A DNA stretch of 58,431 nucleotides from Candidatus Daviesbacteria bacterium RIFCSPHIGHO2_12_FULL_37_16 (GTDB lineage: Bacteria > Patescibacteriota > Microgenomatia > Daviesbacterales > UBA10151): the NCBI GenBank assembly GCA_001776785.1, contig MFDF01000023.1:1-58431 (forward strand), given 5' to 3'. The notes below the pieces were generated by a model. It did not search any database, had not been told where the DNA came from, and was given only the letters and a program-made list of their open reading frames with translations. Both the position numbers and the translations under genes were made by a program. Shown here one piece after another: positions 4,593-51,189 of this stretch. Each line of letters starts with the position of its first letter. Positions within the stretch are counted from its first letter, which is position 1.

Positions 4593-5771
4593 ATGGCAGG
4601 AACATTTGACAGATCAAAACCACACGTAAATGTAGGAACCATGGGTCATGTTGACCATGGTAAAACTACTCTAACTGCAGCTATAACTAAAGTCCTTTCA
4701 GACAAAGGTATGGCTGAATTTAGGGCTTATGACCAAATTGACTCAGCTCCTGAGGAAAAGGCCCGTGGAATTACAATTAACATCTCCCACCAGGAATACC
4801 AGACAGAAAAAAGACATTATGCCCACATTGACATGCCTGGGCATGCTGATTACATCAAAAACATGATTACAGGTGCTGCACAAACAGATGGAGCAATTTT
4901 AGTTGTGAGCGCTCCAGATGGCCCAATGCCTCAAACAAGAGAGCACTTGCTTTTAGCAAAACAGGTTGGAGTTCCAGCCATTGTAGTTTACCTTAATAAG
5001 ACTGATATGGTTGATGATGCTGAACTTTTGGATCTGGTTGAAGAAGAAGTCAGAGATTTGCTTAAAAAATATGAATATGATCCACAGTCTCCTATAATCC
5101 GCGGTTCTGCTAAAAAAGCATTAGAAGGTGATCCAGAAGCTGTAAAATCTATTGAAGATTTAATGAATGCAGTTGATGAGTGGATTCCAACTCCTGTTAG
5201 GGAAAAGGAAAAACCATTTTTGATGGCTGTTGAGGATGTTTTCTCTATTAAAGGTAGAGGAACTGTTGTGACAGGAAGAATTGAAAGAGGAGTTGTTAAG
5301 ATTAATGAGGAAATAGAGATTGTTGGTATAAGACCAACTAAGAAATCTGTTGTAACAGGTATTGAGATGTTCCATAAGCTTCTGGATCAGGGAGAAGCTG
5401 GAGACAATGCAGGAGTACTTTTAAGAGGTATTGAAAAAGATGATGTTGAGAGAGGTCAGGTTTTAGCAAAGCCTGGATCAATTACTCCACATGCGCAGTT
5501 TGAAGCTGAAATTTATATCCTTTCCAAAGAAGAGGGTGGAAGACACACACCATTTTTTAAAGGATACAGACCACAATTTTATGTAAGGACAACTGATGTG
5601 ACTGGTGAAGTTACTCTTCCAGAAGGTGTTGAGATGGCAATGCCAGGTGACACTACAAAGATCACTGCAAAGCTTATTACTCCAGTTGCTATGGAAGAGG
5701 GATTAAGGTTTGCTATTAGAGAAGGTGGTAAAACTGTAGGTGCAGGAGTTATCACAAAAATTATAGCCTAA
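4593..5771 (+). CDS. tuf: Elongation factor Tu
   Basis: 392 aa. [17 protein letters not shown] and NKTD motifs. Confidence 0.98.
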
Positions 5772-30897: not shown

Positions 30898-30968
30898 CGG
30901 GGAGTGGTATAGTGGTAACACATCGCGCTGGGGGTGCGATATCGGGAGTTCGATTCTCCCCTCCCCGA
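30898..30968 (+). tRNA. tRNA-Pro (anticodon GGG), CCA not encoded
   Basis: Acceptor CGGGGAG/CTCCCCG. Anticodon stem TCGCG/TGCGA with loop CTGGGGG. T-arm GGGAG-TTCGATT-CTCCC. Discriminator A. Confidence 0.9.
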
Positions 30969-30970
30969 CA

Positions 30971-43327: not shown

Positions 43328-43638
43328 TCGCCTAGGAAGAGTATAAGCCAGATTCTGTTGGGAAAGTTTTATCTGAGTCTGCTTTCCCTGCGATAATTTA
43401 TCTAATGCTCCTCATTTCAACAAATGTACGAGCAGTACTGTTGGTTCTAGGATTGCAGCGGGGAGGATTGCCCGTTTCATTCACCACATCCGCCTGCTGG
43501 CGGACTGTGACTCGTTTCTGTTGCTCTATACTTGCGGTTACCCGAGCCAGCTTACGCTGGCCACCCTACTCTGCGCTGTCTGGACTTTCCTGACCCAATG
43601 ATTTCTCAAAGGACCTAATCGCCCATCTTCCCAGGCTT
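43328..43638 (-). ncRNA. rnpB: RNase P RNA, bacterial type A, compact (~311 nt)
   Basis: On the minus strand: P4 strands AGGAAAGUCCA and ACAGAAUCUGGCUUAU, GCAACAGAAA (J11/12-like), GGUGGCCAGCGUAAGCUGGC. P1 pairs GCCUGGGAAGA (5') with UCUUCCUAGGC (3'). Confidence 0.9.
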
Positions 43639-49224: not shown

Positions 49225-49253
49225 TTGACATACTTTGAGATAAAGAGTATAAT
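49225..49253 (+). promoter_or_regulatory. Consensus sigma70 promoter P1
   Basis: TTGACA (49225-30), 17 nt spacer, TATAAT (49248-53). Confidence 0.55.
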
Positions 49254-49269
49254 TTTTATACATTAGCTG

Positions 49270-49298
49270 TTGACAAGAAACTTTTGAGAAAATAGAAT
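49270..49298 (+). promoter_or_regulatory. Near-consensus sigma70 promoter P2
   Basis: TTGACA (49270-75), 17 nt spacer, TAGAAT (49293-98). The mini-ORF ATG lies 11 nt after the -10 box. Confidence 0.55.
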
Positions 49299-49309
49299 AT
49301 ATTAGTAGT

Positions 49310-49417
49310 ATGAGCCAAATTGATTTAAGTTTTATAATTTGTTTAGTTATTTTCTTTACCCTTCTTAGATGGGTGCTCATTATTATGGGCACAAGGAAGG
49401 GAGGTCAATTTAGCTAA
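49310..49417 (+). CDS. Leaderless 35-aa hydrophobic mini-ORF (candidate leader peptide or small membrane peptide)
   Basis: MSQIDLSFIICLVIFFTLLRWVLIIMGTRKGGQFS*. Its last codons cover the GGGAGGTC antiterminator arm. Confidence 0.4.
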   Translation: MSQIDLSFIICLVIFFTLLRWVLIIMGTRKGGQFS

Positions 49418-49468
49418 ACATAGCTAAATCTCAAAAGTTAGGAGACCTCCCGAATGGGAGGTTTTTTT
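49399..49468 (+). promoter_or_regulatory. Antiterminator/terminator switch 1
   Basis: GGGAGGTC (49399-406) is complementary to GACCTCCC (49444-51). The terminator is ACCTCCC-gaat-GGGAGGT plus T7 (49445-68). An intervening hairpin is TTTAGCTA-aaca-TAGCTAAA (49409-28). Confidence 0.55.
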
Positions 49469-50281
49469 ATACAAAAAATGGAAAGAGTTACAAGTATTTA
49501 TTTACATGAAAGAGGTGTGTTAGTAGATTTGCCTCCTCAACTTGCTCAGAATATTTTTTCTGATCCAGATCAGGGGGAGTTTTATATGGGTGAGGTAGAA
49601 AAACAGAGATTGAAAGCTATATTAAAAGACCCCATTTTAAAGAAACGGTATCCTGATTATTCAGATGGAGATAGGTATATGGATGGAGTTTCTCCCCAAT
49701 GGAGAGATAGACTTATGGGTTGGTCTCATGAGATGACGGAGGCAATCAAAGATGCTTGTTTGGATATAGGAATAGATAGATTTGGGGTTATCTTGCATGG
49801 ATCTGTTGCTAAAAACTTGGCTAAACAAAGGACTGATGCTGATCCTTCAAATATTGATTTAGCTGTAATAGGTGATATATCTGTTGATGAAGGTGAGGAA
49901 ATTAAAAATATTATAAGAGGAGCTCGGGAGAGAATAACAACTAGAATTAGAGTTGCTGAAAGTTGTCGATGTGTAGGTTTAAGGTGCGTTTGTGCATCTG
50001 AAGTTAGTCTTTCTAAGCCTTCAAATCCTATTGAGAGGGTGGGTGTGTTAGTTCAGGATATAGAAACATTAAGGAAAAACGATTATTATCAAGCAAGAAT
50101 GTTTATGTCTTCTTGTGCAAGGGTAATGTATGATCCCTTTGATTTGTGGAAAGCTTTAGAATTGGAAGCAGTTCCAAGCATGGCTAAGTTTAATATGACC
50201 CGAGCAGAACGAAAAAGAGTCATGGTTGAAGAAAACAGACAAACAGTGCCAGGAGTTTTGATACCAGTAGGGTCGTTTTAA
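49454..50281 (+). CDS. Pol-beta-superfamily nucleotidyltransferase-like protein (275 aa)
   Basis: Central HGSVAKNLAKQRTDADPSNIDLAVIGD resembles the hG[GS]-x(n)-D-h-D-h NTase motif. Start is either 49454 (AGGAG SD 9 nt upstream, ATG in the terminator loop) or 49478. Confidence 0.6.
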   Translation: MGGFFIQKMERVTSIYLHERGVLVDLPPQLAQNIFSDPDQGEFYMGEVEKQRLKAILKDPILKKRYPDYSDGDRYMDGVSPQWRDRLMGWSHEMTEAIKDACLDIGIDRFGVILHGSVAKNLAKQRTDADPSNIDLAVIGDISVDEGEEIKNIIRGARERITTRIRVAESCRCVGLRCVCASEVSLSKPSNPIERVGVLVQDIETLRKNDYYQARMFMSSCARVMYDPFDLWKALELEAVPSMAKFNMTRAERKRVMVEENRQTVPGVLIPVGSF

Positions 50282-50797: not shown

Positions 50798-50826
50798 TTG
50801 ACAATTGGGCTCAGAATTGTTATTAT
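50798..50826 (+). promoter_or_regulatory. Near-consensus sigma70 promoter
   Basis: TTGACA (50798-803), 17 nt spacer, TATTAT (50821-26). The mini-ORF ATG lies 9 nt after the -10 box. Confidence 0.55.
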
Positions 50827-50834
50827 TTTTGTTA

Positions 50835-50900
50835 ATGTTAAGAAATTGGAGCAAATTTTTCTTTAGTTACTTTACTTTCCAAAGGAGGGAGGGAGTTTGA
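50835..50900 (+). CDS. Leaderless 21-aa Phe-rich mini-ORF (candidate leader peptide)
   Basis: MLRNWSKFFFSYFTFQRREGV*. Five Phe including FFF. Its last codons cover the GGGAGG antiterminator arm. Confidence 0.4.
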   Translation: MLRNWSKFFFSYFTFQRREGV

Positions 50901-50959
50901 TGTCTTAGACTAATAAAGCCATAAGACTCAAATAGGCCTCCCAAAAGGGAGGTTTTTTT
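50887..50959 (+). promoter_or_regulatory. Antiterminator/terminator switch 2
   Basis: GGGAGG (50887-92) is complementary to CCTCCC (50937-42). The terminator is CCTCCC-aaaa-GGGAGG plus T7 (50937-59). An intervening hairpin is GTCTTA...TAAGAC (50902-27). Confidence 0.55.
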
Positions 50960-50988
50960 ATGCCTAAAAAGAGAGGAGGTGTTGAGTA

Positions 50989-51189
50989 GTGTCTGATAAA
51001 GAACCAAGTGGTATTGCAAAACTTGATATTGCCCAGTCTGTTGCTCGGGGAATAGTCCCAGAAGGAGTTGCTCCTAAAATTGTTGTTGATATGATAAAAC
51101 CAATTCAAGTTTCTGAAGGAAGACCATTAAGAAGAAGAATTGCAGAACTTAAAAGACCCTTTAGAGATTTGAACAAGTGGGAAAAATAA
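50989..51189 (+). CDS. Hypothetical protein (66 aa)
   Basis: GTG start preceded by GAGAGGAGGTG SD. The start overlaps the TAG stop of a 9-codon uORF (ATG 50960, MPKKRGGVE*). Confidence 0.5.
   Translation: MSDKEPSGIAKLDIAQSVARGIVPEGVAPKIVVDMIKPIQVSEGRPLRRRIAELKRPFRDLNKWEK

Follow-up and report, generated by a model that had tools for sequence, protein, structure and literature searches.

The closest described counterparts of the two units analysed here (A and B, both within a window of 58,431 nucleotides, the whole stretch of DNA studied) are transcriptional attenuators with short leader peptides. The enterobacterial trpL, pheL, leuL and ilvL/ivbL leaders have the same order of segments 1 to 4 (seg1 to seg4). 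In both groups seg2 follows the leader stop codon closely or can be reached from it, the control codons are placed about 13-25 nt ahead of seg2, and a GC-rich terminator is followed by a run of U. The FFFSYFTF stretch of the unit B leader is reminiscent of FFFAFFFTF in pheL. Unlike the enterobacterial leaders, which have a start codon led by a Shine-Dalgarno (SD) sequence, units A and B start beside the promoter; they differ further in that the anti-antiterminator of unit A is weak and the downstream genes are not biosynthetic. In PMC11857589, which cites Morbach et al. 2000, the ilvBNC attenuator of Corynebacterium glutamicum is described as encoding IlvL (MTIIRLVVVTARRLP) from a transcript that starts 1 nt from the start codon and has no ribosome-binding site. 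As in unit A, a short leader rich in Ile, Val and Leu and competing antiterminator and terminator structures precede the structural gene. That system, which mutational tests have examined, controls the synthesis of branched-chain amino acids in Actinobacteria, whereas unit A belongs to Patescibacteria, precedes a gene for a nucleotidyltransferase-like (NTase-like) protein, and is predicted from sequence.

Other relatives share parts of the design. Mycobacterial leaderless short ORFs encoding polycysteine sense an amino acid by ribosome pausing, with one logic at many loci (a 'ribulon'; Canestrari et al., bioRxiv 10.1101/834739), whereas the output of the units described here is an intrinsic terminator with a U7-8 run. 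In the ermC, cat and yxjB leaders, as proposed for our units, a short ORF selects the RNA structure and a stalled ribosome turns the gene on (PMC6851288). The NTase-like product adds to the likeness to such drug-inducible attenuators by probably sharing its fold with some resistance nucleotidyltransferases; it differs in its degenerate catalytic residues, and the codon classes of sister units track amino-acid pathways. In Sinorhizobium meliloti, the RNA released from trpL (rnTrpL) and its peptide (peTrpL) act in trans (PMC6614838, PMC7968998).

No literature linking Patescibacteria with leader-peptide attenuation was found in the library searched. Members of this group, the candidate phyla radiation, have tiny genomes with few recognisable regulators. 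To our knowledge, almost none of them can be cultivated. Ribosome-mediated transcription attenuation of the trp/ilv/leu type, probably acting through a near-leaderless leader of 35 codons, best explains what sequence and comparison show of unit A: its parts and how they are conserved, arms that covary, a retained reading frame and, in sister units, codons that match gene function. Because orthologous units are conserved and sister units match codons to genes, the sequences point to unit A (49270-49468) as most likely a branched-chain-amino-acid type of attenuator; unit B (50798-50959) is most likely of the Phe type (Table 1). The attenuation mechanism is classical; the novelty lies in the phylum and in the sort of gene that would be under its control.

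Table 1. Coordinates of the features of units A and B and of the genes that follow them.
Feature	Position	Strand	Description
Upstream promoter-like site A	49225-49253	+	TTGACA-17-TATAAT, 12/12 match to consensus
Proximal promoter A	49270-49298	+	TTGACA-17-TAGAAT, 11/12
Leader mini-ORF A	49310-49417	+	35 codons, MSQIDLSFIICLVIFFTLLRWVLIIMGTRKGGQFS, no SD
Hairpin P1	49359-49401	+	CCCTTCTT (49359-66) pairs with AGGAAGGG (49394-401)
Proposed control codons 22-25	49373-49384	+	GTG CTC ATT ATT = Val-Leu-Ile-Ile
Seg2, antiterminator 5' arm	49399-49406	+	GGGAGGTC, mini-ORF A codons 30-33
Small linker hairpin	49410-49427	+	TTAGCTAAACATAGCTAA, enclosed by antiterminator, holds mini-ORF A stop codon
Seg3	49444-49451 (extended form 49441-49451)	+	GACCTCCC, pairs with seg2 (antiterminator) or seg4 (terminator)
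Seg4 and T7 run	49456-49468	+	GGGAGGTT (49456-63), T7 at 49462-49468; terminator with seg3, loop GAAT
NTase-like gene	49478-50281	+	267 aa, Pol-beta-fold nucleotidyltransferase-like, Levybacteria/Microgenomates family
Unit B promoter	50798-50826	+	TTGACA-17-TATTAT, 11/12, TG before -10 box
Unit B leader mini-ORF	50835-50900	+	21 codons, MLRNWSKFFFSYFTFQRREGV, ATG 8 nt past -10 box
Unit B seg2	50886-50893	+	AGGGAGGG
Unit B seg3	50935-50942	+	GGCCTCCC
Unit B seg4	50947-50954	+	GGGAGGTT; T7 at 50953-59, whole switch 50886-50959
ORFs after unit B	50960-51189	+	9-codon ORF (ATG 50960, seg4 as SD), then 66-aa orphan ORF

Both of the tandem near-consensus promoters of the original prediction are present, and a sigma-70 scan of 12 kb places its three top matches in units A and B. 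Throughout the window, both exact matches to TTGACA-N17-TANAAT and one of the four matches with a single mismatch belong to these units. The 35-codon ORF lacking an SD was likewise found as described, with its ATG (49310) 11 nt past the second -10 box and its stop codon, TAA, at 49415-49417. The mRNA had been proposed to be leaderless, and here a distinction is needed. It would be near-leaderless but probably not strictly so, because a distance of 11 nt from -10 box to ATG implies a short 5' UTR of 4-5 nt, with the transcription start site expected at about 49304-49306 (4-6 nt ahead of the ATG). In a transcript from the upstream promoter-like site, mini-ORF A would lie about 50 nt from the 5' end, again without an SD; the attenuation model does not account for this perfect promoter match. 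The proposed control codons are 15-26 nt ahead of seg2 and include CTC, a rare Leu codon in the source genome (5% of Leu codons).

The arms of the switch also occur as predicted, with their three-way complementarity and an intrinsic terminator ending in T7. The terminator reads GACCTCCC-GAAT-GGGAGGTT followed by T7, and its hairpin alone is calculated at -16.8 kcal/mol. The competing seg2:seg3 duplex has -16.6 to -19.3 kcal/mol (p = 0.003-0.007 against shuffles), and the fold of 49305-49470 has z = -4.5 against dinucleotide shuffles. The pattern CCTCCC-N4-GGGAGG occurs exactly twice in the 58 kb, at the unit A site and at 50937-50952, where 0.08 occurrences are expected. The anatomy of unit A is confirmed as real and far beyond chance.

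Comparison of the two alternative structures, as the original prediction had suggested, gave a fold for each ribosome position that the model needs. Constrained folds that place a ribosome at the stop codon yield the terminator alone, and those that place it at codon 24 yield nascent RNA with the seg2:seg3 helix. The terminator is favoured at equilibrium in every full-length state, so the outcome of the switch depends on kinetics. P1 lies within the mini-ORF, encloses an 8-bp hairpin (49373-49392), and may serve either for pausing or as a weak anti-antiterminator. It does not block seg2:seg3 pairing in these folds. Untranslated nascent RNA forms the antiterminator as well; because P1 also overlaps seg2 by just 3 nt, the state without translation may read through, unlike in trp superattenuation.

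Under the attenuation model, transcription would begin about 5 nt ahead of ATG 49310 and a ribosome would load on the nascent 5' end. With fast decoding, it would pass seg2 and reach the stop codon, seg3 would pair with seg4, and RNA polymerase would terminate at the U7 run. Scarcity of charged branched-chain tRNAs would instead hold the ribosome at the Val-Leu-Ile-Ile codons and leave seg2 free to pair with seg3, so that no terminator forms and transcription enters the NTase-like gene. From the sequence we infer that the mini-ORF is translated, that ribosomes stall at the control codons, in which direction regulation runs, and what the physiological signal is.

The behaviour of untranslated RNA could also suit a device that responds generally to the state of translation or to drugs that target the ribosome, in the style of erm, cat and ABC-F leaders, in which slowed or absent leader translation frees seg2 and the NTase-like gene might encode a drug-modifying nucleotidyltransferase. 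The antiterminator of unit A forms whenever seg2 is uncovered, with the ribosome stalled or not, and the regulated genes are not biosynthetic, both of which agree with such a sensor. Against it, no conserved arrest motif is seen besides the V-L-L-I tract. We consider a drug sensor unlikely, mainly on grounds that come from the sister units and from the NTase-like protein itself (below).

Comparison with about 40 related units supports attenuation. Orthologues of the NTase-like gene occur in about 20 other Levybacteria/Microgenomates genomes (27-45% protein identity), and almost all have a unit on the same strand directly upstream, with a near-consensus sigma-70 promoter. In 20 of 23 orthologous leaders the -10 box lies 6-12 nt before the start codon, a layout that suggests a near-leaderless mRNA. 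The orthologous units have no SD, an open frame of 13-35 codons, a purine tract (seg2) at or just past the stop codon, and a terminator 5' arm (seg3) with two possible partners, seg2 and the seg4 that runs into U7. The frame from the promoter-proximal ATG is open to seg2 at 18/18 loci, whereas stops interrupt the other two frames in 35 of 36 cases. Within the frame, the conserved tract GTN-CTC-(C/A)TT-ATT is always read as Val-Leu-Leu/Ile-Ile. The region from the start to P1 is poorly conserved and variable in length, and a P1 hairpin is predicted in every leader.

Real sequence totalling 186 kb was scanned for units that combine a promoter with a near-leaderless start codon, 8-45 codons of open frame and a terminator. 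There were 31 such units, whereas 10 shuffles gave none; their start codons are ATG (29) and GTG (2), with no TTG. In 15 units seg2 begins 0-6 nt past the stop codon, and in 17 it lies 9-41 nt ahead of that codon's end, so a terminating ribosome would always cover it. Since a MAFFT alignment of the leaders misaligned the terminators, arms were evaluated by alignment-free shuffles and explicit comparison. The seg2:seg3 duplex is significant (p <= 0.05 against 300 dinucleotide shuffles) in 25 of 32 units. Pairing of seg1 with seg2 beats shuffles in just five of the 32, and we do not claim the anti-antiterminator as proven because this pairing is mostly not significant. Arm sets covary among units (GGGAGG/CCTCCC, GGCGG/CCGCC, GAGAGG/CCTCTC, GGGAGA/TCTCCC, GGAGCGG/CCGCTTCC, GAGGGG/CCCCTC and CGGAGG/CCTCCG), and a U-A pair of the unit A antiterminator (in seg2) is C-G in the closest orthologue, L007. 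Leader A has no substitutions in strain variants L003-L005 (99.4-99.9% identity), a comparison that is uninformative since at most one was expected.

The mini-ORF and the complementarity, on whose recurrence at orthologous loci the original prediction of a leader-peptide attenuator depended, are both present there with covarying arms; the frame, the position of the stop codon and the retained arm complementarity all support that central inference. The same comparison bears on whether the transcript of about 160 nt could be a free-standing small gene or small RNA acting alone, its place before the NTase-like gene being incidental or serving to insulate that gene. Unit A has its own strong promoter and strong terminator, unit B is followed just by the orphan 66-aa ORF, and a role in trans is possible for the RNA or peptide of an attenuator, as rnTrpL and peTrpL show in Sinorhizobium (PMC6614838, PMC7968998). 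Yet in about 20 genomes NTase-like orthologues keep the unit immediately before them in the same orientation, and in several of these genomes the gene ATG comes straight after the U-run of the terminator. The interval 49468-49478 leaves no room for a separate promoter of the NTase-like gene, the peptides are poorly conserved in both sequence and length (13-35 residues), and a competition among seg2, seg3 and seg4 would be purposeless in a simple small gene. It is very unlikely that the unit acts alone in this way. Under attenuation, too, the strong promoter would yield a terminated transcript of about 100-160 nt that could be stable and have its own role, as in S. meliloti trpL.

Peptide length also bears on an earlier alternative, in which an antisense RNA from the minus strand would control the 35-residue product as a type I toxin or as a small protein of the membrane. 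Its hydrophobic core of about 21 residues and basic tail would suit a membrane peptide, and a promoter-like site with 10/12 matches lies on the minus strand (49408-49379). Orthologous peptides in at least 11 genomes, however, have only 13-16 residues, too short to cross a membrane. The proposed antisense promoter is best read as TTGACC-18-AATAAT and is no better than background (45 such matches against 37.7 expected). It is not conserved either, since L007 has GGGAGGCC at this position and has lost the -35 box. We regard a toxin as extremely improbable, and the comparison with orthologues does not support this alternative.

A protein or small ligand could in principle set the switch without translation by binding the hairpin of GUNCUCCUUAUUA / GGGCGGGAG, which is conserved. 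Conservation also extends to the UUAUUA tract, though this is predicted to be unpaired, and the binder could be the NTase-like protein itself, which has the fold of a nucleic-acid enzyme and may be catalytically inactive. The fixed distance between start codon and -10 box, the frame open at 18/18 loci and the precise stop would nevertheless be needless in an untranslated RNA. The same design also stands ahead of unrelated genes with leader codons that match their functions, and at the gathering threshold Rfam returned only RNase P RNA and one tRNA in the whole window, with no match to a leader. Control by such a binder is highly improbable. A riboswitch or T-box was rejected, with no conserved aptamer and no Rfam match. 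In E-value mode, both units align to the whole length of Rfam RF01859 (Phe_leader), with AUG and terminator aligned; unit B scores 34.9 bits and unit A 31.3 bits, under the gathering score of 55, and neither is assigned to this family.

The sister units indicate what the ribosome might sense. Four genomes have ilvA behind a leader rich in Ile (MKIQKITIIDFITS, MASQGIIIGIIINS, MVINQVISSIDIIITP and MAKGIISIIGIIITSFGGALA), a leader rich in Leu, Val and Ile (MRHNSLFANILLLVIV) precedes a gene for an ilvB-like TPP enzyme, and at L043 a leader rich in Phe, Tyr and Trp (MSKQSFQTFYFWFYFT...) precedes a pheA-like (prephenate dehydratase) gene. A gene from the pathway of the amino acid that would be sensed is seen in these sister units of other genomes only; for units A and B no such match was found. 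Leu, Ile and Val together make up 60% of the stall-window residues of NTase leaders, compared with 25% in long genes; part of this richness could be a by-product, as a pyrimidine-rich strand that pairs with a purine tract encodes Leu, Phe, Ser and Pro anyway. Aminoacyl-tRNA supply and a ribosome-targeting antibiotic had both been offered as the signal. The codon class matching gene function in the sister units favours the first, and amounts to a signature of amino-acid-specific sensing, leaving the second less supported. The region upstream of a trpE-like gene (L044) looks like a T-box by eye, yet has no Rfam match.

The NTase-like product has no known link to amino-acid metabolism, which weighs against the attenuation model and agrees with the earlier statement that the regulated gene is not an amino-acid biosynthesis gene. 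Members of the Pol-beta superfamily carry a GS motif and three carboxylates (hG[GS]...[DE]h[DE]h...[DE]). The family studied here has the invariant motif GS...DPSNID, in which, with Gln201, Asn and Gln occupy two of the three usual carboxylate positions; the invariant Gln201 lies on the strand expected to carry the third carboxylate, with catalytic positions placed by eye. Weak matches to Pfam Polbeta or NTP_transf_2 were obtained for 33 of 46 family members, and a PDB sequence search with the family profile and an NCBIfam search gave no match. A structural search with the predicted fold (pLDDT 88.8) gave weak Pol-beta-fold matches; the MNT antitoxin, GlnE and ANT enzymes rank highest in PDB, all with E >= 0.01. 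The distant similarity to the aminoglycoside nucleotidyltransferases ANT(9) and ANT(4') is a structural point in favour of a drug-modifying enzyme, but these matches are very weak (E 0.07-0.2, TM about 0.3), the carboxylate replacements are invariant across the family, and no homology to resistance genes was found in profile or NCBIfam searches. The protein modelled here may be catalytically inactive.

In unit B, five Phe codons and one Tyr codon lie between 50856 and 50879 of the leader, which has an orthologue in L007 (MKTAIVKNFFYFTFRKEGAV) and resembles the aromatic-rich leader ahead of the pheA-like gene in L043. The stop codon of the 9-codon ORF that follows overlaps the GTG start (50989) of the 66-aa orphan ORF, which has a good SD. 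Homologues of the orphan were found in the same organism only, so unit B is testable only through its leader.

Taken with the sister units, the sequences suggest that one large lineage uses classical attenuation from near-leaderless mini-ORFs at many loci, and members of the NTase-like family appear to be switched on as decoding of branched-chain or aromatic codons slows. Levybacteria and other Microgenomates could have a ribosome-run amino-acid-starvation regulon in which interchangeable near-leaderless leaders stand before a common terminator/antiterminator cassette, a proposal that we advance tentatively, as possible rather than probable. If so, leaders of the Leu/Val/Ile, Ile and Phe/aromatic types would control the few biosynthetic genes that remain (ilvA, ilvB-like, pheA-like) together with small orphan proteins and an expanded, lineage-specific NTase-like family whose active sites are degenerate. 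These proteins of unknown function would then be starvation effectors of bacteria with reduced genomes, and most strong intrinsic terminators in such genomes would be regulatory and not gene-end signals. The attenuators would offer a first functional clue to this conserved family, and their leaders could be used as computable markers of the amino acid sensed at each gene and as targets in existing metatranscriptomes from the Rifle aquifer.

The units also matter for annotation, as gene callers place the start of the NTase gene inside the terminator loop. The true start is probably ATG 49478 (MERV...). ATG 49454 was rejected as the start because it falls within the terminator loop, where 'MGGFF' is simply the translation of the terminator's 3' arm. 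Homologues align from MERV/MKER on, and in L007 the loop ATG is out of frame.

All of the features described earlier for the leader before the nucleotidyltransferase-like (NTase-like) gene, here called unit A, are present. These are two tandem promoters, an ATG that lies 11 nt past the second -10 box without a Shine-Dalgarno (SD) sequence, a 35-codon ORF, and the antiterminator 5' arm (seg2), shared middle arm (seg3) and terminator 3' arm (seg4) with its T7 run. The observation is thus confirmed. A second leader, unit B, has its ATG 8 nt past the -10 box of a promoter, a 21-codon ORF (MLRNWSKFFFSYFTFQRREGV), a purine tract and a terminator of identical design.

Features of units A and B and structured RNAs in the window
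Feature	Position	Strand	Details
Unit A upstream promoter	49225-49253	+	TTGACA-17-TATAAT, 12/12
Unit A proximal promoter	49270-49298	+	TTGACA-17-TAGAAT, 11/12
Unit A mini-ORF	ATG 49310 to TAA 49415-49417	+	35 codons
Unit A hairpin P1	49359-49401	+	overlaps seg2 by 3 nt
Unit A seg2	49399-49406	+	GGGAGGTC
Unit A seg3	49444-49451	+	GACCTCCC
Unit A seg4	49456-49463	+	GGGAGGTT
Unit A T7 run	49462-49468	+	sequence
Unit B	50798-50959	+	layout as in unit A
Bacterial class A RNase P RNA	43328-43634	-	105.6 bits, gathering score 100
tRNA-Pro(GGG)	30898-30969	+	Rfam

The sequence features of unit A are not due to chance. CCTCCC-N4-GGGAGG, expected 0.08 times in the 58-kb window, is present twice (in unit A and at 50937-50952), and in a 12-kb scan for sigma-70 promoters the three top matches all lie at units A and B. 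The only two exact TTGACA-N17-TANAAT sites in the whole window belong to these units, as does one of its four one-mismatch sites. The RNA 49305-49470 has a predicted fold of -49.9 kcal/mol (z = -4.5). A blind scan asked for a promoter of 10/12 or better, a start codon 4-14 nt on, a reading frame of 8-45 codons and a terminator. It recovered 31 units (29 ATG, two GTG and no TTG starts) in 186 kb of window and related loci; ten dinucleotide shuffles yielded none. The same 186 kb (window and loci L006-L039) contain 49 strong intrinsic terminators, and a promoter of at least 10/12 precedes 38 of them by 30-230 nt; canonical terminators in these genomes seem to sit mostly in leader units, not at gene ends.

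Related leaders were collected from 33 loci encoding NTase-like relatives in species-representative genomes and metagenomes, plus one found by exact protein look-up, and 23 were tabulated after removal of duplicates. The mini-ORF and the arm complementarity are kept before the NTase-like orthologues. In 20/23 leaders a promoter matching 10-12 of 12 positions ends its -10 box 6-12 nt before the ATG (GTG in one), and the mini-ORFs span 13-35 codons. The peptides diverge, and the pyrimidine tract GTN-CTC-(C/A)TT-ATT is always read in one frame, as Val-Leu-Leu/Ile-Ile. Seg2 is defined in 18 leaders; in all of them the frame from the promoter-proximal ATG has no premature stop, and of their 36 other frames 35 contain one or more stops.

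For 32 units, the best upstream partner of seg3, which is the terminator 5' arm, was searched with 300 dinucleotide shuffles as control, and the seg2:seg3 duplex was better than the shuffles (p <= 0.05) in 25. In 15 units seg2 begins 0-6 nt past the stop of the mini-ORF; in the remaining 17, units A and B among them, it lies 9-41 nt before that stop ends. A ribosome at the stop would therefore always cover it. The three arms covary across genomes (GGGAGG/CCTCCC/GGGAGG, GGCGG/CCGCC/GGCGG, GAGAGG/CCTCTC/GAGAGG, GGGAGA/TCTCCC/GGGAGA, GGAGCGG/CCGCTTCC/GGAGCGG, GAGGGG/CCCCTC/GAGGGG and CGGAGG/CCTCCG/CGGAGG). The antiterminator pair U49405-A49445 of unit A (GGGAGGTC/GACCTCCC) is C-G in L007 (GGGAGGCC/AGCCTCCC), the locus of its closest orthologue. 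Constrained folding of the two alternative structures of unit A behaved as expected: a ribosome at the stop codon leaves the terminator as the sole structure, and one placed at codon 24 lets seg2 pair with seg3 in the nascent transcript. Untranslated nascent RNA forms the antiterminator too, because P1, a hairpin inside the mini-ORF, overlaps so little of seg2; an upstream seg1:seg2 pairing was significant in only 5/32 units in the shuffle test. The part of the predicted logic of unit A that we consider firm is that a ribosome over seg2 would cause termination and a delayed one would allow readthrough.

Sister units indicate which amino acid may be sensed. Ile-rich leaders (MKIQKITIIDFITS, MASQGIIIGIIINS, MVINQVISSIDIIITP, MAKGIISIIGIIITSFGGALA) precede ilvA in four genomes, and the ilvA protein at locus L020 exceeds the cut-off of NCBIfam NF006390 (threonine ammonia-lyase) with 603.9 bits. 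The leader MRHNSLFANILLLVIV precedes an ilvB-like TPP enzyme and MSKQSFQTFYFWFYFTDLKFGGIVLFKK a prephenate dehydratase. This match of leader codons to gene function is, at the level of sequence, the classical signature of amino-acid-specific leader-peptide attenuation. Of the 108 residues in the stall window of the NTase leaders (codons starting 10-27 nt before seg2), Leu, Ile and Val account for 65; their share in eight long genes of the window is 25%, and the conserved CTC makes up only 5% of Leu codons there. Phe-rich leaders related to unit B precede a 70-aa ORF (L007), a 165-aa protein (L022) and an NTase paralogue whose SDIDID motif is intact (L011). Because the NTase leaders resemble the ilvB-type leader and unit B the pheA-type leader, we read unit A as a probable attenuator of branched-chain type and unit B as one of Phe type, both before non-biosynthetic, lineage-specific genes. 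The conserved open frame, the covarying arms and the codon-gene match thus support the main interpretation of the original prediction, leader-peptide attenuation. Two signals had been proposed; the codon-gene match in sister units favours aminoacyl-tRNA supply, and a response of unit A to any slowing of translation, antibiotics included, is less well supported.

The proposed mechanism of unit A is of the trp, phe, leu and ilv attenuator type. As related in PMC11857589, citing Morbach et al. 2000, transcription of Corynebacterium glutamicum ilvBNC starts 1 nt from the leader start codon; on that account it is a direct precedent for a promoter-adjacent start without SD, as here. Mycobacterial leaderless polycysteine ORFs are a related precedent, although their output is translation, not termination as in these units (bioRxiv 10.1101/834739). 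Units A and B align end to end with the Rfam Phe_leader family and score 31-35 bits, short of its gathering score of 55; they would function like that family yet are not members. Full-text literature searches returned no paper linking leader-peptide attenuation to Patescibacteria, Microgenomates or the candidate phyla radiation. The interest of the units lies in the phylum, their number and the unexpected genes that they would control, the mechanism itself being of a known kind.

Assemblies from the Rifle aquifer (GCA_001777025.1 and AMFJ01011902) match the window, which contains typical candidate-phyla-radiation genes; Rfam at gathering threshold finds nothing in it besides the RNase P RNA and tRNA-Pro(GGG). 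The ORF after unit A (49478-50281) belongs to a family of ~240-residue proteins whose sources, where named, are Levybacteria, Microgenomates or Patescibacteria. Pfam Polbeta or NTP_transf_2 is weakly matched by 33/46 members, and the AlphaFold model (pLDDT 88.8) has only weak Pol-beta-fold matches (MNT antitoxin, GlnE, ANT(9), ANT(4'); all E >= 0.01). In the invariant motif GS...DPSNID, Asn (SNID) replaces the usual first catalytic Asp, and an invariant Gln lies on the strand expected to bear the third carboxylate. The protein may lack transferase activity, and its family could consist of pseudoenzymes or rely on another chemistry. The L011 paralogues retain SDIDID. Gene callers place the NTase start at an ATG in the terminator loop, giving false 'MGGFF' N-termini (region 49454-49477). 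ATG 49478 is most likely the true start, because homologues align from MERV/MKER on and 'MGGFF' in three database entries (P0001, P0018, P0020) is the terminator 3' arm ATGGGAGGTTTTTT translated.

Tandem NTase-like paralogues at L016 (1094-3100) and L017 (1165-3100) each have their own leader unit, MNYKFEFKSKNNFLKGGLFA first and then MKLVCRNFADLINA. Gene order is conserved at several loci (L009, L012 around 700-2340, and others): a trigger-factor-like gene (labelled by eye from its N-terminal sequence), a ~220-aa protein with DUF5660-carrying relatives in L040 and L045, the leader, the NTase-like gene and a convergent HIT-family gene. The window retains only the NTase and HIT genes, with AspRS divergent upstream. 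Weak minus-strand promoter-like sites (49246-49276; TTGTCA-16-AATTAT, 9/12) overlap the -35 box of a unit A promoter and could serve AspRS. Directly 3' of the unit B U-run, a 9-codon ORF, MPKKRGGVE (50960-50991), takes its SD from the terminator 3' arm, and its stop overlaps the GTG start of a 66-aa orphan ORF (TAGTG). This arrangement, which may reflect translational coupling, is not conserved in L007.

Other elements occur at the related loci. One, a conserved element with its own promoter-like site (AATCCGCCAA...CCTGCCCGC...GGCAGG(T/C)GGGGC...GAATAG), without an Rfam match at gathering threshold, lies between the leader unit and a serB-like gene at L012 (~4990-5100) or ilvA at L036 (~1258-1370). 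At L044 (1950-2230), a long structured, terminator-ended leader without a mini-ORF unit precedes a trpE-like (chorismate-binding) gene; it looks T-box-like by eye yet has no Rfam match at gathering threshold. At L006 (655-715) and L023 (~770-840), a short GC hairpin and T-run come within ~10 nt after a strong promoter-like site, with no mini-ORF; at L006 the arrangement lies just upstream of the real leader ORF. Finally, a leader unit at L027 (1673-1962; GTG start, MVRKFVICINILNS, terminator) precedes a tRNA-Val(GAC) gene by ~70 nt, and this tRNA is often found nearby at other loci too (L012, L020, L040).
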